Made by a program: the position numbers and the translations under genes. A DNA stretch of 64,000 nucleotides from Escherichia phage ECML-10, in sequence record OL631479.1; one strand, given 5' to 3'. Below the pieces are notes generated by a model. That model worked only from the letters and a program-made list of their open reading frames with translations. It had not been told where the DNA came from and searched no databases. Positions within the stretch are counted from its first letter, which is position 1. Each line of letters begins with the position of its first letter. Of the stretch, positions 1 to 36,030 are shown piece by piece.

Positions 1-1009
1 CTATCCACTCTGGGACAAACACTGATGGAAAATCTGTTTCAGAATACCCTTTGGTCGGACTAGTGAATCTGCCAGTTATTGTGTTGGATCTTTTGTCAAA
101 TGAGGCTTCCGGATAGATCTTTACCTCACCACAGACACAATCCTCACTCAGTGTCATTGTTGCCGGGCCATAATATGCACCGACCAGCAAACCATACTTA
201 CCAGCTACATAGCTGAGATCTGCTCCACAAGCTTTCAGCATTTCTGCCATAATACTTGCGGGAGCCTCATCCATGTCAAACTCACCGTTAATGGTGTAAC
301 GTCGCTCACTGGTTCCGTCAGCGTTTTTTACCGCCTCGTCGCATATGTTAGCAGCTTCCTTGAAGGACTCCCAGTTGATGGTTTCGTCAGGACATTTAAG
401 GTACGTTCTTAAATAGTCTAGGATCACCAAGGCCGCGTTATTGGTATACACCTCTTTACTGATACGAGGATCATAGCATTTTTTACCAACCTTGACGAGT
501 GTAACGTTTGGCAACCCAAAAGGAAACTTGTTAGGGTCAAACTTGAAGCTGGCACGTAGCCAACTGATCCCTCTACCTATCATGTCTGGTGACCACGATG
601 GACAGTGTGTCCCCATGAAAGGATCAGCTGTTTTTCTGTCGTTATGTAGCTCCCACGATACCAGATCTCCATACGAGGAAATAGGATTACCGTCGATGAG
701 TATGTCTTCTATACCTTCCAGAGGATGATTGGCAAGAACAATAGCACAGTGGAGAGTTCTGTCTCTATCCTGCTCCAAAAACGCAAGCAATCCGGATGTG
801 CGTGTCTTCCCATACACTACAGAGCAAGGTGCAGCAGAAGATCTGAGAAGCTTTTGTCTATCTTGCTGACTTCTGTAAGATTTGTTGCCCTCAAAAATCT
901 TATCCAGAGTTCTGGTGGTAACAGTGTTCAGGCTGTCAGCCAGAGCTGCCTTGGATGCGTTCCAGTCATAACTTGAAGATCTTGCAGAAGCAACGATGTT
1001 ATCAATCAT
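1..1009 (-). CDS. Tail tip / host-specificity-like protein, partial (runs off window start)
   Basis: Minus-strand ATG at 1009 (MIDNIVASARSSSYDWN...); manual translation stays open to position 1; last gene of the tail module. Not in ORF track because truncated. Confidence 0.35.
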   Translation of the reverse strand, partial: MIDNIVASARSSSYDWNASKAALADSLNTVTTRTLDKIFEGNKSYRSQQDRQKLLRSSAAPCSVVYGKTRTSGLLAFLEQDRDRTLHCAIVLANHPLEGIEDILIDGNPISSYGDLVSWELHNDRKTADPFMGTHCPSWSPDMIGRGISWLRASFKFDPNKFPFGLPNVTLVKVGKKCYDPRISKEVYTNNAALVILDYLRTYLKCPDETINWESFKEAANICDEAVKNADGTSERRYTINGEFDMDEAPASIMAEMLKACGADLSYVAGKYGLLVGAYYGPATMTLSEDCVCGEVKIYPEASFDKRSNTITGRFTSPTKGYSETDFPSVFVPEWI

Positions 1010-1020
1010 TGCAATTGGCA

Positions 1021-1458
1021 TTAATACCTCCAGACATCAACAACGACAGAATCTTTCATATCGAACATAAATACCCCTTTATCACCTTTCGCCCAAATCT
1101 GGTTGTTCCAGAACACACCAGCGGTGAGCCCGTTCAGACCTTCGAAGATAACAATATCTCCACGCTGAACCTGTTTAGGAGTATCCAGCCTAGTCATAAA
1201 GAGATCAAAAATAGTAGGCAGGTGTGTGGTTTTGAAACGGAGCATGCACCATCTTTTGCTTTCCAACTCCGTTTTATACGTTCCTTCGAAGTTAGAAAGA
1301 AAATCTGTTCCGTATTGGGCATCAACACACTTAGCTGCAAAGGTGCAACAATCGTGGAATCCCCATTCAAAAGGTATGGTGGCCTCTTCGTCAAATACTT
1401 TCCACAATCTTTCTTGCCAGTCCACTAGACGAGGATGTGTGCTCATTAAACCTCCCAA
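1021..1458 (-). CDS. Hypothetical tail-associated protein, possible Cys/His peptidase-like
   Basis: 145 aa; FHDCC motif; position in distal tail module. Confidence 0.3.
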   Translation of the reverse strand: MGGLMSTHPRLVDWQERLWKVFDEEATIPFEWGFHDCCTFAAKCVDAQYGTDFLSNFEGTYKTELESKRWCMLRFKTTHLPTIFDLFMTRLDTPKQVQRGDIVIFEGLNGLTAGVFWNNQIWAKGDKGVFMFDMKDSVVVDVWRY

Positions 1459-2012
1459 ATGATCGGGCGGCTCGCCACCTGATCCACATATTTAAAAAAT
1501 CTGTCATTATCGTTTCTTGAGCTGTGGCTTTCCTCCGTGTACCGATAAGGAAAACCTCTTAACCAACTGTTGAAGATGGAAGAGATGGATATGGACAAAG
1601 CACTATTCTCACCAGTCTGAATAGCCATATCTGTTATAAGGCCGTCAAACAAGCCATTAGTTGTAACAGGCAGACCATTCTCCATAGCGGTAATGTACAA
1701 CGTGGCACGACAACCAGAATACTCCGTCTTCAGCAGATCACCCACATACTTAGGATCAAACCCGTTCAATGTCGCTACCACAGATCCGAAGTTGGTGGCA
1801 TCTTTCTCAGACACAGCAGTTAATGTTGCTGATCCACCTATCCCTATAAAATGTTGCCCCTCAATTACTACAACACCAGTGCCTGAGCACACCCTGACAG
1901 TTCCTGTCGGTAGCTCCAGCTTTGCAGCAATTAAGATCTCAACACCATCAAGCTCCAGCTTTTCAAGAAATAAATTATCTAATGGCGCTCTGATCATCTT
2001 AGAAATCCTCAA
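1446..2012 (-). CDS. Hypothetical tail protein
   Basis: 188 aa ORF co-oriented and overlapping neighbours in tail module. Confidence 0.3.
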   Translation of the reverse strand: MRISKMIRAPLDNLFLEKLELDGVEILIAAKLELPTGTVRVCSGTGVVVIEGQHFIGIGGSATLTAVSEKDATNFGSVVATLNGFDPKYVGDLLKTEYSGCRATLYITAMENGLPVTTNGLFDGLITDMAIQTGENSALSISISSIFNSWLRGFPYRYTEESHSSRNDNDRFFKYVDQVASRPIIWEV

Positions 2013-2589
2013 AGAAGTTGATAACTATATTATCACCTTTTTGCATAGCATCGACTTTTTGCTTAATTTTGTAAATATCTCTGATATGAAACCTACCCTT
2101 CGGAGATTGAGTTATTATCTTCATGGTGTCCCCTGCGGCAATAGGTTTTCTAAGTCTTGGAGATATGCCTATAACAGCAGACCCAACACCATCACTACGC
2201 ACTGGAGCTGTTACCACTTTCAATTCATCATTGACAGATATTTTATCCCCAGCTCTGGCTATGTCTCTGTTTGGCTCCCACCCAACAGTCCTCAAAAAAT
2301 CATCGTTACCAGTAGGACCAAGGGCGATTGGCTCATTAGCTGTAACTGAGTGACCGTAAGTTTTAATAAGAAAGATGTTTCCATCTTTATACACCTGGTC
2401 AACAAAGCTCTTAAGCTCTAGCAACTGTGATTCGCTGATATTGGAAACCGTCAAAGTGCCTTTCCAGTTAGGTGTGGCATAGGTTACTTTTTGCGTTTTA
2501 CCTGTAAACGGACTTTTAAACGTAACAATATCTGCCAGCAGCTCCAATCTAATATCTGGAAGGTATCTAGGCCTTTCCCATAAAAACAT
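1999..2589 (-). CDS. Hypothetical tail protein
   Basis: 196 aa ORF directly downstream of the long tail fiber gene. Confidence 0.3.
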   Translation of the reverse strand: MFLWERPRYLPDIRLELLADIVTFKSPFTGKTQKVTYATPNWKGTLTVSNISESQLLELKSFVDQVYKDGNIFLIKTYGHSVTANEPIALGPTGNDDFLRTVGWEPNRDIARAGDKISVNDELKVVTAPVRSDGVGSAVIGISPRLRKPIAAGDTMKIITQSPKGRFHIRDIYKIKQKVDAMQKGDNIVINFFEDF

Positions 2590-2688
2590 TGTGCCTCCAG
2601 GTTAAACAATCATGATAGTTATTTTACCAGATTTTGAGTTAATACGCAATACAAACAAAAAGCCCCCGCCGAAGCGAGGGCAAAACAG

Positions 2689-5600
2689 TTACTTCAGTTT
2701 CTCTTGCAACCCAGTAACAACCTCTGTCAATTTTTTAACCTGCTCCTCAAGGGCGGTTATTTTATCGTCCTGTTCCCTGCAAACCTGGACAAGCAAGCCT
2801 GTTACGGCTGCGTAATCCACGCTGTAGAATCTTTCCTCTGTTATCAAAGGAGTTCCATCTTGATCAGGGTTTGGGATTTCCTTTCTTTGCACGAAAGAGC
2901 TAACTGCTTCCGGCAGCGCTTCAAGCACTTCTTGTGCTATAACACCTGCATAAGGCATACCGTTCTCTTTAAGAGTGTAAGTATAACCCTTCATCTTCCG
3001 GATAGCTTCTAACGCATCAGGAATAACAGATATGTTGTCTTTCAGGTCTCTGTCAGAGCTCTGATTGACAGATGTGCAATTCACAGCACCGTTTACAGAA
3101 AGATATCTTGATTTATCCGGCAAGGTACCGCAATGCCATACCCAATTTGCTTGAGACTCGTCAAGAACCTTAAACTCTAACACGTTTGGACGATCCCCTG
3201 TGCTGCCGTTACCCCAATAGTGCATATGGGCGGCATTAGCAGGCATGTTGCCACCGTTATTAGTAACATGGCTTCCAGAAATATATACCTTTAACTCTGA
3301 GGTCGGTATTTCCCCTTCGGGAGTTGTTCCTCCATATCTGAAGCTAACACCATTGCCACCTGTTTGGGTCCACGGGCCCCAAGTGAAGGTTTGTCTCACC
3401 ATATTACCATAACGTATAAATCTATCGCCGTGATAGGTAATATACTCTTGAACACACCCATTACCGTTATTGGCGTTATTCTGCAACACAATAAGTGTTC
3501 CAGCTTCATTTACCGGATAATGACGATCATATGTTGCATCATTATTTGCCGATTGATGGTAAATGCCTTCCCACAACCCATTATAGGTGTCAAGGTCTGA
3601 GGTACCGAGACCCTGACCCCTGTGCTGCATAGCCTTATTCCAGGGGTGGTGATTACCGCCTTCTATAGACCTGGTGTATAAGTTACTTTGTCTGCCAGCA
3701 ATCTGGAAAGCGTAGTTTCCCGAGAATCCTACAGATAAACCTCCTACAACCATGGTGTCTTGTGGACCGTTAACATTACCAGCCATTATTTTTGACGGGT
3801 TATTAGGCCCGAACTGGTTGTTCCAGTCTCCACCAGTATGACATACAAAACCACCTGGGGCTGAAAAAGTACCATCCTTATTGAAGTTGTAGAATCTATG
3901 AGCTGTGCCCACAACATCTCGAACAATAACTTGACCAGCCTCTGGAGTAGACCTGAACTCTGCTTGACCTTTAAGGCCAGCACCATTACCGCATTTAGAG
4001 GTAAACGTGCCGTTAGTTAGATCCTCTGTTCCATCTGATGCACACTGGAATCCTGCGTTAGAGAATAGCGCCTTTCTAGGACCACTGTAGCACAAATAGT
4101 CAAAACCGTCAGCCCATAGCTCTACTTTAGGCATGTTCATTTTGCTCATTATCGCATAGCGTTCAGCAGTGCCTATATAGTGCCACTGTGTGCCGCCGCC
4201 AGTGTAGAACCCAGAGGTACCTTTGAAGTCAACAATAGGTCTGGTGTTGGTATTGTTATCTCCGAGAACAGCCAGATTTAAATCTGCTGACTGGAGAGGT
4301 GCAACGAACTTAACACCGTCCTGATTGTCTGTTACAGAGCCAACCTGGTAATCTTGCTCCCTGGTAAACACCTCGACAACATTTCTACTTGCGTATATGC
4401 TGACAGGGAAAGCACGCGCCTCTGCATAGAAAGCAACATATTCTTGTTTACCCCTTGTTGGAGCAACCATCCCAAGAAGTGCTTTTTCATTCTGGTAGAA
4501 ATTTACTACCCCGTAGAAAGAGTCTCCTCTGTCTGTCCAACCACCAGTTCTATAGTGACACTGTAAGGTAGCACAGTTCATAGGGTCATTTCCAGATGAC
4601 GATCTGGTAACTATGGTAATATCAGTACCAGTTGCTGGAGCATAGTACGGATCTGTTCTAACGATGATCGGGTAGTATTTCCCATCTTCCATCCCTGCGG
4701 TTCTTGGCAGTGTTAAGAAGTCTTTCACACCTGCTGCTATAGGAACTTTGAACAGATTCTGAGCATCTGCTAGAGTTGTAGCCCCGGTGCCACCTGCGGC
4801 TTGAGGTAGAGGTTCCCACTTGGCCTTCCGGTTGTTATAAACACCCCATTCCAGAGTGCCGTTACCGGATTCGTCCATCCAGCCATCCCAGATAACCATC
4901 TTGGCGGCTTTCTTAGATCCCCAGAAGCCTCTTTCTGCTCCTGAACTACGTATCCACTCTCCAAGTCCCCAGTTTGTCAGCTGACCAGTAAGATCCCCAA
5001 CCTGCATGTATTTAGGGCAGTCTAATACACCGTCTTCGCGGAAACCCAAATATCTATGAGTTTCAGATCCTTTTGCACCTTTGTGGAGGTGGATTGTCAA
5101 CCAAGCCTTATTGTCGTTTCTTACCTCAGAGTAGATCCTATATCCATGCTCAAGGACACCGTCAGCGCTGTATTTGTCCCCGTTAACAATACCGGATGCT
5201 GACTTAACATCAGCAGAACTTTGAGACAGGTAAAGGTGCCCGAAGGTAGGAGAATTTCTAGACCCGAGACCGATGTGCGATCTAAAGGTATCATCGTTAC
5301 GAGGTCTAACCATCGGCTGCCATGCAGTCCACTGATTTGTGTTGGCCTGATAGGTTCTCAAATACCAAACATCTACGTTAGAGAATGGGTAGTATTCCTG
5401 ACGACAACCTGTACCGCCGTTAGCATTGTTCTGCCAAACAATCAAGTGACCAGCACCAGAACCTGCAGGGTAACCATTTGCCTCAGTTGCATAAGCAGTC
5501 ATCGGCTGGTAGTATACACCATCCTGATTACCAGTCAAGTTATTGATATTGAAATTTGGCTCAAGGGCTGCACGTTGCTTATAGAAAGCACCGATATTGA

Positions 5601-6501
5601 TACGGACTCCAGCGGCATCTCTAGCCCCTGTGCCGCCTTGCTCTATAGCAAGAGGTTGCCACGAAGCTGTTTGTTGGTTCCACATACCCCAACGGCCTGT
5701 TGCATCAAGCTGCAAGTACCCTGCCGTATTTAAATCATCTCCAGCACGGATAACTGTTCTTGTTGGGTTGTTTGCCTCTAGGCGTTTAAATTCATCACGA
5801 AGTGCTATTCTTTTCGTTGTTGCTACACCGTTGGTTACTGCAATGGTGTACATGGCTCCGGTGGTAGCGCCACGGAAAATACCATCAACAGTTGTAGTAT
5901 CACGGCGAGATACCACACCGTTCAGAAATTTTTCACCAGCTGCTACAGAAGGGTAGTTGGTGGTTCTTCCCTCTTCAATAACTGCAGGGCCAACAAAGTT
6001 ATCAAGGTGAATAACATCGCCTACGGTGTGCACTGTACCAAAATCTACACGCTGTGCAAGTGCTTTAGCATCGTTAGCTGTCTGAACAGTAACATCCATT
6101 ACATCCTGGACAGACTGCCCTTCGGCTGTCATGATCATAGATGCGCCAATGGTAGATTCCAGCTCCTCCCTTAAGGACGGGTCAGTATATACCATCCATG
6201 CAGCGTCAGTAATCCCACCATCAGCGTACGGTGAAGACAGTGCAGGAACAGTGTGCGGAAATTCACCTTTCCAACGCAGGTAGAGGTCTTCCTCTTCGAA
6301 GTAGGCAAAATCCATTGGGCCGTTTAACTTACCACCTTCCTTAAAGGAGATTACATGAGAAACAGTCCCATCCACATGGACAACATCGCCAATTTTTACA
6401 CGACGGGTCAGGTCTGGTTGCTGAACAACCAGGTAATCATCCTCTGTCACTGCGGTAGTGGCAGGAAGAGATTCAATTCTGACAACTTTAATATCAGCCA
6501 T
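2689..6501 (-). CDS. Long tail fiber protein with C-terminal intramolecular chaperone (peptidase S74-like) domain
   Basis: 1270 aa; internal repeats with W-x-P-L...GGTGA motif; C-terminus SDRDLKDNISVIPDALEAIRKMKGYTYTLKE resembles tail-fiber auto-cleaving chaperone domain; N-terminal ~100 aa shared with the 9136-9804 protein. Confidence 0.75.
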   Translation of the reverse strand: MADIKVVRIESLPATTAVTEDDYLVVQQPDLTRRVKIGDVVHVDGTVSHVISFKEGGKLNGPMDFAYFEEEDLYLRWKGEFPHTVPALSSPYADGGITDAAWMVYTDPSLREELESTIGASMIMTAEGQSVQDVMDVTVQTANDAKALAQRVDFGTVHTVGDVIHLDNFVGPAVIEEGRTTNYPSVAAGEKFLNGVVSRRDTTTVDGIFRGATTGAMYTIAVTNGVATTKRIALRDEFKRLEANNPTRTVIRAGDDLNTAGYLQLDATGRWGMWNQQTASWQPLAIEQGGTGARDAAGVRINIGAFYKQRAALEPNFNINNLTGNQDGVYYQPMTAYATEANGYPAGSGAGHLIVWQNNANGGTGCRQEYYPFSNVDVWYLRTYQANTNQWTAWQPMVRPRNDDTFRSHIGLGSRNSPTFGHLYLSQSSADVKSASGIVNGDKYSADGVLEHGYRIYSEVRNDNKAWLTIHLHKGAKGSETHRYLGFREDGVLDCPKYMQVGDLTGQLTNWGLGEWIRSSGAERGFWGSKKAAKMVIWDGWMDESGNGTLEWGVYNNRKAKWEPLPQAAGGTGATTLADAQNLFKVPIAAGVKDFLTLPRTAGMEDGKYYPIIVRTDPYYAPATGTDITIVTRSSSGNDPMNCATLQCHYRTGGWTDRGDSFYGVVNFYQNEKALLGMVAPTRGKQEYVAFYAEARAFPVSIYASRNVVEVFTREQDYQVGSVTDNQDGVKFVAPLQSADLNLAVLGDNNTNTRPIVDFKGTSGFYTGGGTQWHYIGTAERYAIMSKMNMPKVELWADGFDYLCYSGPRKALFSNAGFQCASDGTEDLTNGTFTSKCGNGAGLKGQAEFRSTPEAGQVIVRDVVGTAHRFYNFNKDGTFSAPGGFVCHTGGDWNNQFGPNNPSKIMAGNVNGPQDTMVVGGLSVGFSGNYAFQIAGRQSNLYTRSIEGGNHHPWNKAMQHRGQGLGTSDLDTYNGLWEGIYHQSANNDATYDRHYPVNEAGTLIVLQNNANNGNGCVQEYITYHGDRFIRYGNMVRQTFTWGPWTQTGGNGVSFRYGGTTPEGEIPTSELKVYISGSHVTNNGGNMPANAAHMHYWGNGSTGDRPNVLEFKVLDESQANWVWHCGTLPDKSRYLSVNGAVNCTSVNQSSDRDLKDNISVIPDALEAIRKMKGYTYTLKENGMPYAGVIAQEVLEALPEAVSSFVQRKEIPNPDQDGTPLITEERFYSVDYAAVTGLLVQVCREQDDKITALEEQVKKLTEVVTGLQEKLK

Positions 6502-6515
6502 TCTTTCTCCTGAAA

Positions 6516-6532
6516 GGGGGCAAACAGCCCCC
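6516..6532 (-). terminator. Hairpin (GGGGGCUGUUUGCCCCC on minus strand) between 865-aa gene and long fiber gene
   Basis: GC stem 5 nt after stop of 6537-9134 gene, followed by short U-run then RBS AGGAGAAAG of fiber gene. Confidence 0.4.
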
Positions 6533-6536
6533 TATG

Positions 6537-9134
6537 TTAAAGGTACAATCCACGGTATTGAGCATAAAGGCCCAGACCGCGAAGGATTTCGCCAGAGTGA
6601 TAGCCAACCGGATCAGAAACTGCCCAGCAGCCGTTTAAAATATTATCCCCATTAATGAAGTGGTGCTTTTGCAGTAGCTTCACACAGGCTTCTACAACAA
6701 TATCTATTTGAGGTATTGTCTCTGAATATCCGCACAGACCTAGCCAGCAGCAACCTGCAAGCCATTCACCTACCACCCACATCCTGTCTCCTCTGTCCTG
6801 ATAAGAATATCCCCCAGAGGTGTTAAAGTCTGTAGGCAGATTTCCTGAATGAGATGACTGGAATCTGTTGAGGAACCATGCCCATTTCTGGCAGAACAGG
6901 AATAGTCTTTCATCAACAGGTTCTTTATGTTTCTTGAGCTCATATATTGTGCGGCACGCAGCAACAAAAGATCTTGACTGGAGCTTAGAGTTATCTACCA
7001 TCTCCCACCAACCAGTCAACCCTTCATTACCTCTTTGCCATACATAACGTGAGGCAACTGGACCCTCTGTCTTAAATGTATTATTATACCAGACTTGAGC
7101 GTCATACAGAAAGCCTATTGTATTTGACAATCTATGGCGATCTATGTTTTCTGCACCCATGCAGTAGACTGCTGGGTATTGCATGCCAGGGTAGGGCCAA
7201 TTTGGCTTTTCCTCTAAGAGATAGTTTTCCTTATCTATCACCTTTCCGGCAGGGAACACACCCGGTGTGTGCCTGTATGCACCTTGCTTGTAGTTTCTGA
7301 CATAGCAATCTCCAACCTTAGCGGTTGATTCTGTCTTGCTTGCCATCCATACACTAAACCAGATTAGATAAGCATCCCTATCTGCAATATAGAATTGCGG
7401 CAGCGTGTTGACGCAATATAGATCAAACAAGCCATTACCTATCTGCCTGTCGCTTAGGCTGAAATCCACAGAGGTGAGCCCCTTAGGATTAGCAAAGAAA
7501 GGTTTAATCTCTTCTTCGGTGTGATGAGGTTGTGTCGGATCTAGTTTGAAATCTCCTAGAGTAAGAGTTTCTGTTATCCATTGTCCATTAGTGGCATATA
7601 GATCAGCATACCATAACCACCTGTCTTTGTCAAGAAATTTGACCCTTACCATCTCATCATCTGATCGATAAGTTACTGAGTTTAAAGAAATCTCTCTTCC
7701 AAAATTGAAAGTTACTTTACCTCTTGCTATATTACAACGGGTGAAGTTGTCAGAGTGGTTGTAAATGTCGGTATCATACTGCATACTGACACTAGCGCCA
7801 CCGCTCACGGCAATGTTTTCCTCTTTAGGTAAGAGATACGGATTACCGTCTTTACCAACCACCTCTACGAAATCGGTAACCTTGGCAACTATTTCTGTTA
7901 CCTCTGCCCCTCCAAAAGGAACCCCTATCCTGTACTGTTTTTTGTTATTGTTGCCATCATTAAGGATGAAATGTGGCTGGAACAGAACCCCTTCTCCTCC
8001 GAAATTCATAACAATTTCAGCATCTCTGCCTATTTTGTATGTAGTCCCTTTTTGGATTATTTCGCAAGGCTGGCGTGCGTTCATTCTAAAATTGATATAC
8101 CCGTCACTGTCCCTGCTCATGACAGGAACTGTTCCTGCAACAAGACAAGTACCATCTGTAAACGGTGCCTTAATCAACGTGGTCTTTCTAAACAGTTTGT
8201 CGTAGGCGTTTATATCACTGAAATTAAGCAACTTGTTGTAAGACTGTTCAAACGCGGTGTAATACTTTTCCTCACCTGTTAAGGTGTAGAGTTGATAACA
8301 AGCGTCACACCACATCTCTTCCCCGTCCAACTCTGGGGCTTGATTATCTGCAACCACGTTTATAGGATTTACAATTACAGGCGATCCTGCAGGTATCACC
8401 GATCCACCCTGCTCTTGGGGTAATCTTACACAATAGGTCACCTTGTGGCTGCCTGTAACACCCTTATCTTGTAATTGGATTGTGCCGAACTCTACAGACG
8501 TATGACCACTGTCGGCTATGCTACCGTTAGCCCAATAGCGGTTACCATCCCATGCTATATACCACTCAACCCACCAACTTAATCCAGATGTTGTCCAATC
8601 TGGGTTAGCATCTGTGCCGCCGTAAACATCAGCGTCTACAGTGTTTCTTCCTAACACACCGTTATATGCTTGGAAGGCCTTGTCCAGGTATTCTCCCCAT
8701 GTCGGAGATCCAGCTGGGATTTTTCCTCTACCGTTAGTAAAAGACACCACCACATCTTTAAACCCACCATGTGATGGGACCCCGTCTGTGGATAGAGGGT
8801 AGTGGGACAATCTTTGCATTTTACTTTCTACAGCATATGCGCCCAGAAGATGACTATTGTAAGCTTCCCAAGCATCTTTTGCCCTATCCAGATAGAAATC
8901 GCTTTTCGATGCCCTGTATGCTTCAATGTATCCCAGAATCAACACAGCTTGGGACTCATGCATTGCCCAATCATTATTTATCTTATTACCTGCCCACCCT
9001 GCAGCTATAAGACCATCAGGGTTTACTAGCTTATTTTGTGTAGGGGTGTTGGTAATACCTGTGTTGTTATCGAGGCACTTCCTGTGCCCCTCAATCATCT
9101 GAAATACGTTATCAATGTTGTGTTGAATACGCAT
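6537..9134 (-). CDS. Tail fiber/spike-like protein, possibly enzymatic (glycosidase-like)
   Basis: 865 aa, Trp/Gly/Tyr-rich, between two fiber genes; no recognised anchor domain. Confidence 0.45.
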   Translation of the reverse strand: MRIQHNIDNVFQMIEGHRKCLDNNTGITNTPTQNKLVNPDGLIAAGWAGNKINNDWAMHESQAVLILGYIEAYRASKSDFYLDRAKDAWEAYNSHLLGAYAVESKMQRLSHYPLSTDGVPSHGGFKDVVVSFTNGRGKIPAGSPTWGEYLDKAFQAYNGVLGRNTVDADVYGGTDANPDWTTSGLSWWVEWYIAWDGNRYWANGSIADSGHTSVEFGTIQLQDKGVTGSHKVTYCVRLPQEQGGSVIPAGSPVIVNPINVVADNQAPELDGEEMWCDACYQLYTLTGEEKYYTAFEQSYNKLLNFSDINAYDKLFRKTTLIKAPFTDGTCLVAGTVPVMSRDSDGYINFRMNARQPCEIIQKGTTYKIGRDAEIVMNFGGEGVLFQPHFILNDGNNNKKQYRIGVPFGGAEVTEIVAKVTDFVEVVGKDGNPYLLPKEENIAVSGGASVSMQYDTDIYNHSDNFTRCNIARGKVTFNFGREISLNSVTYRSDDEMVRVKFLDKDRWLWYADLYATNGQWITETLTLGDFKLDPTQPHHTEEEIKPFFANPKGLTSVDFSLSDRQIGNGLFDLYCVNTLPQFYIADRDAYLIWFSVWMASKTESTAKVGDCYVRNYKQGAYRHTPGVFPAGKVIDKENYLLEEKPNWPYPGMQYPAVYCMGAENIDRHRLSNTIGFLYDAQVWYNNTFKTEGPVASRYVWQRGNEGLTGWWEMVDNSKLQSRSFVAACRTIYELKKHKEPVDERLFLFCQKWAWFLNRFQSSHSGNLPTDFNTSGGYSYQDRGDRMWVVGEWLAGCCWLGLCGYSETIPQIDIVVEACVKLLQKHHFINGDNILNGCWAVSDPVGYHSGEILRGLGLYAQYRGLYL

Positions 9135-9135
9135 C

Positions 9136-9804
9136 TTAGATAGCTCCTGCGATAATCAGTGCCCCGTACCAAGTTAACCCGTTGTCGTAGGTTTCCAACT
9201 TGAAAATGTCTGTTGCACCAGCCGTGAATGTTAGGATAGGATCTCTTCCATAAGCCCATTTAACATTATCAGGCCAATAGACTTTGTTGCCGCCAGAGGT
9301 CTGCGTAATGCATACGGTTATAGTTCTCGCCACCCCTTCAAGACCTTCTGTTTGATTTTCAAAAGAGATTGTGGTATTTGAAGTTAGTCGAACTTTAAAG
9401 GTATCCGCAACTTCAAGATCCATATCAAGCTGACCACCGATAGATCCGTAATCAACTATTCTGCCAGAAGAAGTTGCAGCAAGCTCACCAAAAACAGACC
9501 AGGCATTTGCAGACACACCCCCAGCACCCTCTACAGTGGAGTCTGGGAGGATTATTTTAGGATAATCCCCGTTCCACGTGTAGTAGCGCTTAGTTTCGGG
9601 GTCGTAAGCAAAGTCCTTCTTGCTCTTAAGATAACCACCCTCTGTGAAATAGACTATCTTAGTAATGCTAAGATCGTTGACAACATCGTCAATCTTAGCC
9701 TTTCTTGTCCCATCAGTCTGGTTGACAACCAAGAAGTCATCACTCAGGACTGTTTCTGCATCTTCAAGATCTGGAATTGGTATTGTAGGATAAGCTACAG
9801 CCAT
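9136..9804 (-). CDS. Short tail fiber/spike protein sharing N-terminal anchor domain with long fiber
   Basis: 222 aa; N-terminus (DDFLVVNQTDGTRKAKIDDVV...YFTEGGYLKSKKDFAY) aligns with N-terminus of 2689-6501 product. Confidence 0.5.
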   Translation of the reverse strand: MAVAYPTIPIPDLEDAETVLSDDFLVVNQTDGTRKAKIDDVVNDLSITKIVYFTEGGYLKSKKDFAYDPETKRYYTWNGDYPKIILPDSTVEGAGGVSANAWSVFGELAATSSGRIVDYGSIGGQLDMDLEVADTFKVRLTSNTTISFENQTEGLEGVARTITVCITQTSGGNKVYWPDNVKWAYGRDPILTFTAGATDIFKLETYDNGLTWYGALIIAGAI

Positions 9805-10542: not shown

Positions 10543-11220
10543 TTAGTGCGGTCCACTTGTCTCGCCATCAGGGCAAGAGTGGGTATGACCTTTATATTCT
10601 GCATAGAATGAATCCAAATCCACACCAGCAGCAGTTATAATTCTACCAGATGGGTCTATTGTGGCACCATTCATTCTGATATTTCCATCCACAGCAGCTC
10701 GCAAATTGGCAGCCCCGTTAGTGAAAGAAAACTCCCCACTGCTGTCGCACCGTAATGTCCCACCAGGTGTTTGAAGCTCAAAATCGCCAGAAGGTGTCAG
10801 TTTAAAATAAACCCTATCATTCCATAACTCTACGTTATCAGGATCGATCTGTAAAGCGTTTGAGTCTGAATGAACAGAGGTGATTGCCCACCCTGGAAAC
10901 AGGCCGTGAGTTTGTTGATCGTCGTTATTGTTTTCATTTCTCTCTGAAAACTGCAATCCTACAACATCTCCGGCCTTAATAGGAAGTGTTAACCTTGCCT
11001 TTCCGCTGTTTGCGGACATCACTTGGATTGGAACGTCATAGATAAGAGGGTATCTCTCCACATCTCCGTCATCAAACGTGGTTTCAGCTATTGGCTGCAC
11101 GGCTGCAGAAGGTATACTGTAGTCAACACTGACAACTCTGGCCCTGATACTTGTGTGGTAGTCCCTCATCATTTTTTCTATGAAGGATCTTACAGCAGCA
11201 TCTTTCCTATTTATTGCCAT
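10543..11220 (-). CDS. Putative baseplate central spike protein
   Basis: 225 aa; Gly/Asn-rich beta-helix-like repeats and C-terminal His/Cys cluster (GHTHSCPDGETSGPH). Confidence 0.35.
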   Translation of the reverse strand: MAINRKDAAVRSFIEKMMRDYHTSIRARVVSVDYSIPSAAVQPIAETTFDDGDVERYPLIYDVPIQVMSANSGKARLTLPIKAGDVVGLQFSERNENNNDDQQTHGLFPGWAITSVHSDSNALQIDPDNVELWNDRVYFKLTPSGDFELQTPGGTLRCDSSGEFSFTNGAANLRAAVDGNIRMNGATIDPSGRIITAAGVDLDSFYAEYKGHTHSCPDGETSGPH

Positions 11221-13566: not shown

Positions 13567-13594
13567 CGATAAAATAAAGGGGGCCGGAGCCCCC
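13567..13594 (-). terminator. Rho-independent terminator after tape measure gene
   Basis: Minus-strand GC hairpin (GGGGGGCUCCGGCCCCC) followed by UUUUAUUUU. Confidence 0.5.
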
Positions 13595-13606
13595 CTGCAC
13601 AGTTTA

Positions 13607-31180: not shown

Positions 31181-31516
31181 TTAGCTATTGCTAACAGGCT
31201 GTATTTCTGTAGTAAATGGCATAAAAGGTGCTGGTTTTTCAGCCTCTTCCACTACCATCTCTTCCTCTTCACCAAACATCTCATCATATTCTTCCTGCAT
31301 TCGGTCTGCCTTATCAAGAACATACTCTGCAATGCTTTGACGAATATTTTGTTTGGTTTTCGGGTCCAACATCATCTCTCTTAAAACTTTGTGAGCTTCT
31401 GGAACCATCGCTATAAAAGATTCCTTCATATCAAGGATGTTCTTCTCTAGCTGAATGGCGTTGGACTCCTCTTTCAGAGGTCTGCCTCTACGGCGACGCT
31501 TTTTAGTTGTATCCGC
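31181..31516 (-). CDS. Hypothetical protein with basic AT-hook-like N-terminus
   Basis: Start chosen at MADTTKKRRRRGRPLK; acidic C-terminus. Confidence 0.3.
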   Translation of the reverse strand, partial: ADTTKKRRRRGRPLKEESNAIQLEKNILDMKESFIAMVPEAHKVLREMMLDPKTKQNIRQSIAEYVLDKADRMQEEYDEMFGEEEEMVVEEAEKPAPFMPFTTEIQPVSNS

Positions 31517-33974: not shown

Positions 33975-34021
33975 ATCTCCTGATTCTCCTTGTGTGGCAA
34001 TTTTCTTTAAAATAGCAGGGA

Positions 34022-34576
34022 TTACTCCCCGCTGTCAATAGCAAGACTCATTGCAATACGGTATGCCTCTTCTAATGGTAAGAGTCTCCCCCACACATCC
34101 CAACCGACATCAAGCTGCCTGCCAAACAACTGTTGTGTGGTTCCGTGAGCATGACCGAACAGTTGGACTGATCCATGAGGCTTTCTGTTCCACTTTGCAA
34201 ACTGGTAATGGCTCATACAGATCAAATTCTTGTTGTGGCGAAGCTCGTAATAATCTACAACCTCGTGATAGAACTCTTTCATAATTCTGACAGTCGTCCT
34301 TGTGTCATGGTTGCCACGAACAAGAATAATATGTCCGTTCAACATATTTAGAATATCCGGGAGTAAGTTGTTGATATTCTTATCATTAGTGCACGCAATA
34401 TCTCCCAAGTGGAACACAGTGTCTGCAGGTGACACAACAGAGTTCCACTCGGCGATGATTCCTGCATTCATACTGTCAAGATTGTGATCATACTGAGATC
34501 TGTGTTTTTGACATGAATCAAACTCCATGACCCGCTGGTGGAGAAAGTGTGTGTCGCTTGTTACAAAGTATTTCAT
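34022..34576 (-). CDS. Calcineurin-like metallophosphoesterase
   Basis: Motifs GDIACTND, GNHD, GHAHG; start at ATG 34576 (RBS GAGGAA) just after kinase gene stop. Confidence 0.65.
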   Translation of the reverse strand: MKYFVTSDTHFLHQRVMEFDSCQKHRSQYDHNLDSMNAGIIAEWNSVVSPADTVFHLGDIACTNDKNINNLLPDILNMLNGHIILVRGNHDTRTTVRIMKEFYHEVVDYYELRHNKNLICMSHYQFAKWNRKPHGSVQLFGHAHGTTQQLFGRQLDVGWDVWGRLLPLEEAYRIAMSLAIDSGE

Positions 34577-34583
34577 ACATTCC

Positions 34584-34994
34584 TCATTTAAGTTTAATGC
34601 AGTTTTTAAGCTGGCGTTCCATACGATCCACAACCCTGTCTGGAACATCATGAATGCTTTTATTACCGTGGCGGTTTTCAACCACGATCACGGTATAACT
34701 ATACCCATGACTGATTGCCATGTCAATATATTCTTGCACATGTTTTTCTTTTGTAAACGTATTACTTACCACGATACGGTCGTATCCCATACGCATCATA
34801 TCTTCTACGTTATCTTTGCACCATTTTGCTGCAAGTGTTACTTTACTTGCATCCCAGTTGTAATTTCCGTCATCGTCGTACCAGAACATGTCGTTCTCAA
34901 AATGTGGATACAGACCTTCTAAAGATAGAGCATTTGCCAGTGTTGATTTGCCAGACCCTGGTATACCACGCACGATATATAGCATTTTAGACAT
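34584..34994 (-). CDS. P-loop polynucleotide kinase-like protein
   Basis: Walker A GIPGSGKST near N-terminus like T4 Pnk kinase domain; start ATG 34994 with RBS GGGGGA. Confidence 0.5.
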   Translation of the reverse strand: MSKMLYIVRGIPGSGKSTLANALSLEGLYPHFENDMFWYDDDGNYNWDASKVTLAAKWCKDNVEDMMRMGYDRIVVSNTFTKEKHVQEYIDMAISHGYSYTVIVVENRHGNKSIHDVPDRVVDRMERQLKNCIKLK

Positions 34995-35022
34995 AGCAAT
35001 CCCCCGTTTTAATTTTAATGAT

Positions 35023-35051
35023 AGTATACCTAACTGTTTTGTTAATTTCAA
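35023..35051 (-). promoter_or_regulatory. Sigma70-like promoter (TTGAAA-N17-TATACT) for kinase/phosphoesterase genes
   Basis: Minus-strand hexamers in divergent intergenic region. Confidence 0.4.
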
Positions 35052-35054
35052 GTG

Positions 35055-35084
35055 TTGACACTAGGTTGTTTGTGTGGCAGGATA
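35055..35084 (+). promoter_or_regulatory. Candidate promoter for RNA ligase operon (TTGACA, weak -10)
   Basis: TTGACA at 35055-35060; -10 region diverged; shares leading GTTGACA with other plus-strand promoters. Confidence 0.3.
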
Positions 35085-35094
35085 GACTGACAAA

Positions 35095-36030
35095 ATGACA
35101 AATGAGGAACGTATGATGAAGTATTTTAATGCAGACGATCTAGTTGACAAAGGTCTTGTAACCAGTCGATATTATCCAGATCTTGGATTAAAGATCTATA
35201 AATATGCCAGAAAAGTATTCTACAACAATCTGTGGCATTTGTCCCCTCGTTTGCTGGAGTGCCGAGGCATTGTTGTCGGTAATGAAGGAAATGTTGTGGC
35301 ATGGCCCTTCACAAAAGTGTTTAACTTGGGAGAAAATCACACCAACCTGCCTGACAATAAGCTTGTGACGGCGGTAGAGAAAAAGAACGGATTCCTCGGC
35401 GTGGTGTCATCTCATAAAGGTGAACTATTGTTCTCAACAACCGGATCTCTTGATTCCCCATATTGTAACCTCGCAAAGGAAACCATCCGGGAGCAATGTG
35501 GTAATTTAGATCTTATCAAGAAGGTTATGGGCAATGAAAACATGACATTCATGTTTGAAATTTGTCACCCTTCAGATCCGCATATTGTTCAGGAAGATCA
35601 TGGCGCATATTTGATAGGTTGCAGATATAATGATTCTGGAATAATGCTGCCAGAAGCAGCTTTAGATGGGATTGCCAAATACCTTGGCGCAAAACGTCCT
35701 CACACTGTGCGTGAAATTCCGTTCAGCTATGCAAAAGAATTGGCTGCAGAAACAAGAGGTGAAGGGTATATGATTCGTAAGCCTTACTACCCTTATGATC
35801 TGCAGCTGAAGATCAAGTCTCCATACTATCTGGCACGGAAGGCCGTAATGAGGGGTAAAGCTTGGAAGATTTGGGATGATGATATCTTTAAACGTGTTGA
35901 CGAAGAGTTTTACGGCATGGTAAACTTCATTCGTAGCAATTACACAGAAGATGTGTGGAACTGCCTACTGGAGCAGGAACGCAGGGAGATACTCGACCAC
36001 TATTTCCACAACGAGGACTATATGCAATGA
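35095..36030 (+). CDS. rnlA: RNA ligase 1 (T4 RnlA-like)
   Basis: LLECRGIVV, FTKVFNLGEN, VEKKNGFLGVV (motif I), GEGYMIRK (motif IV), LKIKS (motif V); matches T4 Rnl1 as recalled. Alternative start ATG 35113. Confidence 0.7.
   Translation: MTNEERMMKYFNADDLVDKGLVTSRYYPDLGLKIYKYARKVFYNNLWHLSPRLLECRGIVVGNEGNVVAWPFTKVFNLGENHTNLPDNKLVTAVEKKNGFLGVVSSHKGELLFSTTGSLDSPYCNLAKETIREQCGNLDLIKKVMGNENMTFMFEICHPSDPHIVQEDHGAYLIGCRYNDSGIMLPEAALDGIAKYLGAKRPHTVREIPFSYAKELAAETRGEGYMIRKPYYPYDLQLKIKSPYYLARKAVMRGKAWKIWDDDIFKRVDEEFYGMVNFIRSNYTEDVWNCLLEQERREILDHYFHNEDYMQ

Follow-up and report, generated by a model that had tools for sequence, protein, structure and literature searches.

A virion protein of an rV5-like coliphage with a predicted six-hairpin barrel fold is encoded in a two-gene cassette with its probable adaptor

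A stretch of 64,000 nucleotides from Escherichia phage ECML-10 (sequence record OL631479.1), called the window here, was analysed for the function of a tail protein of 865 residues. The protein is a homologue of gp42 of phage rV5 and is called gp42 throughout; the neighbouring gene products are also named after rV5. According to the predicted structure, gp42 very probably folds as a six-hairpin (alpha/alpha)6 barrel like those of glycoside hydrolases, with two beta-sandwich insertions. Its function is quite likely directed to a glycan, and the product of the adjacent gene, gp43, is likely to be its adaptor, as judged from gene order and co-occurrence. Taken as a whole, a virion-borne, enzyme-like and glycan-directed gp42 that is mounted by gp43 is the reading that we favour, with some reserve. 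For catalysis by the gp42 proteins of the rV5 clade, the model leaves the balance about even. An initial annotation, made from the DNA letters, had placed an 865-residue protein at 6537-9134 and proposed a glycosidase-type, receptor-degrading spike. The single open reading frame was confirmed at 6537..9134 and found on the minus strand, which had not been stated; the observation was partly confirmed and its interpretation partly supported.

The identity of gp42 was first derived from its sequence. It was 99.4% identical to rV5 gp42, which is annotated as 'tail protein', and about 35% identical to the phi92-like homologue. Because of the near identity to rV5 gp42 and the homology to phi92 gp141, the window is assigned by sequence to a Vequintavirus, an rV5-like coliphage. 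Identical 865-residue proteins (100% identity) are encoded in GenBank by the phages HdK5, naam and RudolfGeigy. The PHROG 2871 profile ('tail protein') was matched over the full length (E = 0, 1184 bits, residues 1-863), and rV5 gp42, phi92 gp141 and PHROG 2871 form one full-length family with the window protein, and nothing in its sequence sets it apart from this family. No match was obtained in Pfam-A and NCBIfam at E <= 0.1, nor with the single sequence among the PDB chains at E <= 1. When 1.84 billion representative proteins were searched exhaustively with HMMER, only 92 clusters were obtained (an earlier word-indexed search had returned only 6 proteins), and the family is therefore small. 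Both gp42 and gp43 were detected in rV5 virions by mass spectrometry (PMC3606486), and gp42 of phage LL12 could be aligned to nearly full-length phi92 gp141 (PMC7229145).

Homologues of gp42 were found in 524 phage records of GenBank. Identity is 95% or higher for each of the 119 copies of the Vequintavirus type; the remaining 405 copies are less than 60% identical and come from very different phages. These include phi92-like myoviruses, a 350-kb Asteriusvirus jumbo phage, 240-kb Salmonella jumbo phages, podovirus 7-11, a 53-kb Rosemountvirus, Erwinia phage phiEa21-4, a T7-like Aeromonas phage and Vibrio phages. A further homologue may be ORF17 of phage S144, a Loughboroughvirus, judging from its description: its authors describe a 'tail protein' of the virion with a hydrolase activity suggested by HHpred and, in Phyre2, a resemblance to neither a spike nor a fibre (PMC7432712). 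Records named 'Campylobacter phage' (MG065635-MG065676; C9, C11, C12, C14, C15, A12a, A116 and D#) contain a gp42 of 99.2-99.5% identity. Most of them are 128-138 kb long, which equals the rV5-like genome size, and three, at 59-88 kb, fall short of it. These records appear to be E. coli Vequintavirus sequences that were mislabelled or entered as contaminants.

The fold of gp42 was predicted with AlphaFold2. A first model from 6 sequences had a predicted local distance difference test score (pLDDT) of 64 and was uninformative in Foldseek; it was replaced by a model from an alignment of 62 family members, which reached a pLDDT of 90.5 and a predicted template modelling score (pTM) of 0.87. This model contains eleven long helices at residues 2-23, 59-76, 79-96, 269-286, 289-305, 663-687, 717-735, 742-761, 782-800, 809-824 and 844-864. 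They match the barrel that is typical for six-hairpin proteins, in which about 12 helices are paired into six hairpins. Residues 1-100 (8835..9134, minus strand as for all parts of the gene) hold the barrel helices 1-3 with the conserved E60/Q62 at the start of helix 2, and the helical-hairpin motif of this part matches cellobiose 2-epimerase and GH76. The first beta-sandwich insertion, residues 101-261 (8352..8834; predicted strands within 101-254), is located between helices 3 and 4. The barrel continues with helices 4-5 in residues 262-312 (8199..8351), where D270-x-E272 is found at a helix N-terminus. A second, larger beta-sandwich insertion, resembling a carbohydrate-binding module (CBM), follows in residues 313-644 (7203..8198; predicted strands within 329-613) and contains the invariant D502. 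The last six helices of the barrel are formed by residues 645-865 (6537..7202, including the stop codon), with the conserved N671, D678, Q680, R721 and E849.

When the model was compared with the PDB by Foldseek, no whole-protein analogue was found (every TM score was below 0.2). The similarities were local: the beta regions resembled CBM-type sandwiches (CBM11/CBM51-type and CIA30-like), and helical and beta parts resembled D-glucuronyl C5-epimerase and GH116. A profile of the barrel only matched the PDB entries of cellobiose 2-epimerase (9e-5), GH76 (4e-4), GH88 (0.015) and a 'six-hairpin glycosidase' (0.037). These matches span just the repeated helical-hairpin motif, and the PDB search with the full profile likewise found only this motif. 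The sequence models of the CAZy glycoside hydrolase (GH) families GH8/GH126, GH76, GH88/GH105 and GH48 gave no significant match. Compared with six-hairpin glycosidases and epimerases (the GH8-like CPF_2247, 3ren; GH105/YteR, GH76, GH48, GH88 and cellobiose 2-epimerase), gp42 is only 9-13% identical and differs in that its barrel is split by the two large insertions (about residues 101-261 and 313-644). At the fold level gp42 belongs to the six-hairpin superfamily, and it belongs to no described family.

The glycosidase-type enzyme of the initial annotation was supported at the fold level, by the AlphaFold2 model and by the barrel-only profile, but no GH family model and no Pfam or NCBIfam family was matched, and an enzymatic activity is put forward here as a possibility suggested by the model. 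The idea of an enzyme is not new as an annotation. Since phi92 gp141 appears as 'Glycosidase' in a review (PMC5380687) and the identical protein is annotated in BASEL as 'lateral tail fiber protein with glycosidase domains', it was already in the literature at the level of annotation. What goes beyond the existing annotation is the six-hairpin architecture with two insertions, for which the PDB offers no whole-protein analogue.

We then examined the conserved residues. In the model, conserved polar residues are located at the N-terminal ends of the barrel helices: E60/Q62 at helix 2, D270/E272 at helix 4, R721 at helix 7 and E849 at helix 11. The conserved N671, D678 and Q680 are within helix 6, and invariant residues were also found in the insertions (K105, R341, D502 at 100%, and Q652). 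The carboxylates E60, D270, E272 and E849, which 86-96% of the family members have in common, are kept in the window protein and may form a catalytic face. The family motif N-A-x-D-A-E-x-W-F was weakly aligned (E 0.15) to the segment of a GH76A mannanase that contains the catalytic Asp-Asp, the pair mutated in PDB entry 6shm. The family's TEGQS may resemble SEGQ, a catalytic-Glu motif of GH8, but no weight is given to this likeness here. The adjacent Asp-Asp signature of GH76 itself was not found in gp42, which has D270-G-E272 (D-A/G-E in the family) and hence an acidic D-x-E motif instead of DD. For the rV5 clade, which comprises the window gp42, P0002 and P0003, we inspected the 47 polar or aromatic positions whose conservation among the other family members is 85% or higher. 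The window gp42 keeps 28 of them, including all of the carboxylates listed above.

The second component of the cassette is gp43, a protein of 222 residues encoded by the open reading frame at 9136..9804 on the minus strand. Its residues 1-110 (9475..9804, minus strand) form a tail-anchoring module that is common to the long fibre gp41. The module was recognised as Tail_spike_N (Pfam PF18668, E 2e-10) and has PDB sequence matches to tailspike N-termini. Over about 100 residues it is 38% identical to residues 7-105 of gp41 (E 3e-18), and both proteins match Tail_spike_N. As the initial annotation had noted, gp42 does not have this module: the best BLASTP E value to gp41 or gp43 was above 1, and Tail_spike_N was not matched. 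The simplest reading is that an adaptor with an anchor and a docking domain carries the anchor-less gp42, which would explain why gp42 can do without the fibre N-terminus. Residues 111-222 of gp43 (9136..9474, minus strand) form the conserved domain of about 100 residues that accompanies the gp42-like gene in the locus comparisons. It is present as a single copy in the window, and searches with it gave no hit in Pfam or among the PDB sequences. The gene adjacent to gp42 was thus found to combine a tail-binding N-terminal domain with a conserved, putative docking part. The placement of gp42 'between two fiber genes' holds for gp43 and gp41 with their shared N-terminal module, but the upstream 222-residue 'fibre' is most likely gp42's own adaptor.

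The linkage of the two genes was followed in other phages. In all eight GenBank loci examined (rV5, RudolfGeigy, the phi92-like PaulScherrer, the jumbo phage phAPEC6, Erwinia phiEa21-4, Rosemountvirus JEP7, podovirus 7-11 and the T7-like Aeromonas phage), a homologue of the gp43 C-terminal domain was encoded directly upstream of the gp42 homologue, with 34-50% identity and E values of 1e-15 to 1e-35. A hidden Markov model of the domain was then applied to IMG/VR, where 77 loci on contigs of 4 kb to 348 kb were recovered with the family alignment and 74 were testable. In 72 of these 74 loci the domain was found on the same strand and ended 3-105 nt ahead of the gp42-like gene. The two exceptions (L062 and L081) are 237-kb jumbo phages without a separate adaptor. 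In L062, a 1198-residue open reading frame (3173-6769) carries the gp42-like module from about residue 277 behind an unrelated N-terminal extension of about 275 residues. The record counts in GenBank are nearly equal for gp43 (512) and gp42 (524), and the counts per genus match closely.

In contrast to the conserved C-terminal domain, the N-terminal parts of the adaptors were of at least 16 types that are not linked by BLAST. Four anchor types are recognised by Pfam as well-known modules for tail attachment: Tail_spike_N, Phage_T7_tail, Phage_tail_fib (P2 gpH type) and phage_tail_N (lambdoid side fibre). This near-obligate adaptor cassette with swapped anchors is new here. At the junction of the two genes (9132..9149, minus strand), gp43 ends with ...GCAGGAGCTATCTAA, followed by one base and the ATG of gp42; an AGGAG Shine-Dalgarno sequence lies inside the last gp43 codons ahead of the TAA. 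Because of this TAA-N-ATG arrangement with the internal Shine-Dalgarno sequence, gp43 and gp42 are probably translationally coupled. A fusion of the adaptor C-terminal domain ahead of a gp42 module in one chain was looked for and none was found.

Three unusual proteins were observed among the relatives. P0066 (293 residues) has a part similar to the gp42 N-terminus at residues 18-195, followed by the adaptor C-terminal domain at 200-287, so that the two parts stand in the opposite order to the genes of the cassette; the protein may be a true variant, a product of recombination or an error in gene calling. P0020 (1557 residues) and P0025 (1795 residues) join the gp42-like module to C-terminal NCTSP_N and TIM-barrel_NCTSP domains (Pfam, E 1e-21 to 1e-78), and the gp42 module is therefore also combined with other receptor-binding modules. 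Both domain types are those of N4 gp65, the non-contractile tail sheath and receptor-binding protein. The window gp42 differs from gp65 in having neither of them, and the family profile shows no similarity to N4 gp65.

In the mechanism that we propose, the tailspike-type N-terminus of gp43, homologous to that of gp41, would anchor the pair at the baseplate periphery, and the C-terminal domain of about 100 residues would dock and hold gp42. Gp42 would turn the conserved barrel face, with a beta-sandwich region on either side, towards the surface polysaccharide. It would bind a conserved enterobacterial surface polysaccharide and probably cleave it, which would help the phage to reach its receptor in the outer core of the lipopolysaccharide (LPS). 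The LPS outer core is the known receptor of LL12 (PMC7229145). Among close relatives the identity of gp41 ranges from 80% to 100%, whereas that of gp42 is at least 95% and gp43 is also nearly invariant. Since gp42 and gp43 vary so little within the genus while gp41 is variable, these comparisons argue for a conserved target and not for a serotype-specific O or K antigen.

A wider proposal is more tentative, and we would rather not count on it as it stands. The gp42-like proteins would be new virion-borne six-hairpin glycanases, unclassified in CAZy, which have spread through myoviruses, podoviruses and jumbo phages as a two-gene plug-and-play cassette, the enzyme sitting on the docking domain of about 100 residues of an adaptor with an exchangeable anchor. 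In rV5-like and phi92-like phages, gp43-gp42 (gp140-gp141) would be part of the lateral-fibre density and attack a conserved enterobacterial glycan. Phi92 gp140, a candidate fibre protein in a 2026 cryo-electron microscopy (cryo-EM) study (PMC13450770), is inferred to be the gp43 homologue from its gene position, as seen in the phi92-like PaulScherrer locus.

Several points weigh against an enzyme-like, glycan-directed gp42 on a gp43 adaptor. The rV5 clade is altered at 19 of the 47 family-conserved polar or aromatic positions, for example by W274M, E360I, Y651M, D703N, W715N and H786W. The substitutions suggest a remodelled ligand site and could mean a changed specificity or a loss of activity. 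Because gp42 matched no Pfam, NCBIfam or PDB sequence family, catalytic residues are not assignable by homology, and the sole motif-level tie to a catalytic dyad (GH76 DD versus D-x-E) is the weak alignment with an E value of 0.15. The contact between gp43 and gp42 is proposed from synteny and co-distribution. In the searched literature we found no experiment on any member of the gp42 family, and the 2026 cryo-EM study of phi92 neither places nor mentions gp141 (PMC13450770). Residue 718 is also among the changed positions of the rV5 clade.

Gp42 could alternatively be a catalytically dead, lectin-like receptor-binding protein, an adhesin on gp43 whose barrel and beta-sandwich domains only bind a surface glycan. 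Among the 19 changes are D703N, H786W, W715N, Y651M and W274M, no curated GH family model was matched, and the authors of the LL12 study found no enzymatic domains in the LL12 tail proteins (PMC7229145). The acids at the helix N-termini (E60, D270, E272 and E849) are nevertheless kept, as are D502, D678, R341, R701 and R721. The changed positions are moreover common to the three sequences of the rV5 clade (the other two are 81% and 56% identical to the window gp42); this looks like a stable alternative site and not like decay, and we regard a dead lectin as rather unlikely. It is improbable that gp42 is mainly a structural scaffold of a branched fibre network, for example the 'arm' of the L-shaped phi92 fibre, with the enzyme-like fold as a relic. 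Such a role would fit with the arm of fibre I and with fibre II of phi92, which lack a gene assignment in the 2026 cryo-EM study (PMC13450770), with the gene order of phi92-like genomes, in which the gp42 homologue directly precedes the other lateral-fibre genes (bas60_0026 and bas60_0027), and with the fusion of some family members to N4 gp65-type receptor-binding domains. However, the cassette is also carried by small contigs of podovirus size (38-41 kb). Within the 12.7-kb locus examined in the T7-like Aeromonas phage, no tail-fibre gene is annotated besides the adaptor ('tail fiber protein') and the gp42 homologue, and there is therefore no sign of other fibres to scaffold there. The conservation across the family is also concentrated in polar residues where the barrel helices end, as a ligand site would lead one to expect.

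Two further identities were examined and rejected. According to the BASEL paper (PMC8594841) and Sellner et al. (PMC8669472), the Vequintavirinae rely on the N4 glycan receptor (NGR) and have a 'glycan deacetylase' fibre in common with N4, and gp42 might have been this NGR-targeting fibre. The Vequintavirinae depend on wecB and nfrB (PMC8669472), and the position of about 8,000 in the legend of Maffei 2021 S5C (alignment of gp49 to gp27) falls in gp42 by our arithmetic. In tblastn, however, N4 gp64, gp65 and gp66 matched nothing in the window, and hhalign gave a probability of about 0.1% for these three proteins against the gp42 family profile. N4 gp64 instead matched bas60_0026 of PaulScherrer ('glycosidase and deacetylase domains'; L007 8880-11039; E 1e-30) and rV5 gp34 (L010 12327-14399; E 6e-28), which lies outside the window, position 1 of the window being rV5 position 31511. 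A gp64-like deacetylase is thus ruled out for gp42 by sequence, the true homologues being bas60_0026 and rV5 gp34, and we give the NGR fibre next to no weight. Equally little weight is given to a core baseplate wedge protein of the gp6/gp7 or gpJ/gpI class. The position of gp42 after the gp25-like gp44 would suit a wedge gene, but the wedge genes of rV5 are gp36 and gp35 elsewhere in the genome, and in Septuagintavirus the gp44 homologue is directly followed by wedge genes, with the cassette absent at this position (PMC11370258); on these two observations the wedge identity was rejected. The homologues in podoviruses point the same way, as do the absence of a structural match of gp42 to wedge proteins and the phiTE baseplate study, which describes no such protein.

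The gp43-gp42 cassette was finally compared with known receptor-binding systems. Two-component systems of an adaptor and an enzymatic receptor-binding protein are represented by the SP6/K1-5 adaptor with its tailspikes, by G7C gp66-gp63.1 and by the tailspike (TSP) complexes of CBA120. As in these systems, a small protein with a tail-binding N-terminus is encoded beside an anchor-less enzyme-like protein, with the anchor swapped to suit different tails and the putative docking part kept. Unlike in these systems, the docking domain of gp43 (residues 111-222) has no relative in Pfam or among the PDB sequences, the cargo is predicted as an alpha/alpha barrel and not as a beta-helix or an SGNH esterase, and its contact to the adaptor is putative. 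Canonical tailspike depolymerases are trimeric right-handed beta-helix proteins, such as those of P22 and CBA120 and phi92 gp150. Gp42 resembles them in being virion-borne, probably glycan-directed and encoded in a cluster of receptor-binding protein genes. It differs in that neither a catalytic domain of the right-handed parallel beta-helix type nor a particle-binding domain at the N-terminus was found and nothing pointed to a trimeric spike, and the term 'spike' of the initial annotation is not retained. The SSV19 tail protein VP4 (7xdi_F) is also among the closest known systems.

The broad-host-range coliphages that are isolated most often include rV5-like and phi92-like phages (PMC8594841), which are considered for therapy and biocontrol. 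If our reading is true, the confident fold and the obligate adaptor give a concrete and testable fibre assignment for gp43-gp42 (phi92 gp140-gp141). The docking domain of the adaptor would then also be a handle for the transfer of this module between phage chassis, with at least 16 natural anchors to choose from. An active gp42 would define a new glycoside-hydrolase-like family with an apparently conserved target, and an inactive one would be an enzyme fold recruited as an adhesin.

The remaining features concern the composition of gp42 and its surroundings. The initial annotation had called the protein rich in Trp, Tyr, Gly and Asp. Compared with the other tail proteins of the window, this was found for Trp (3.1% vs 1.6%) and Tyr (5.5% vs 4.1%), but Gly (9.1% vs 9.1%) and Asp (6.5% vs 6.1%) hardly differed. 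Cys is also enriched (2.0% vs 0.6%). The long fibre gp41 (1270 residues, with Tail_spike_N and Peptidase_S74) is encoded at 2689..6501 on the minus strand and is variable among Vequintavirus. Between the gp42 stop codon and the gp41 ribosome-binding site, a hairpin with a 7-bp G+C stem (AGGGGGC-TGTTT-GCCCCCT) was found at 6515..6533 on the minus strand. The hairpin that had been noted before the long fibre gene therefore exists, but has little weight: it is followed by TTT only and failed the terminator scan, and its folding energy is unexceptional (z -1.57, 12 of 200 shuffles fold as well). It was rejected as a canonical terminator because of the short tail and the failed scan. Canonical terminators of the block were found after gp41 (2662..2681) and after the tape-measure gene (13577..13596), and the transcription unit ends at the terminator 2662..2681, past gp41.

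The gene order in the block is hub (gp46), spike (gp45), gp25-like (gp44), gp43, gp42 and fibre. The homologue of the central spike gp45 (10543-11220 of the window) matches Pfam PF18352. In Septuagintavirus W70 (genes 112-115), whose fibres are said to be like those of Certrevirus, the wedge genes come directly after the homologue of gp44, PHROG 4233 (PMC11370258). Because of this order, the rV5 block gp43-gp42-gp41-gp40-gp39-gp38-gp37 (about 1-9804 of the window) looks like a set of accessory fibre genes inserted between gp44 and gp36. At about 34000-36000 of the window, the GC skew and the coding strand flip, with negative skew and minus-strand genes before about 34 kb and positive skew after it. 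The switch separates the structural module from one that is transcribed divergently.

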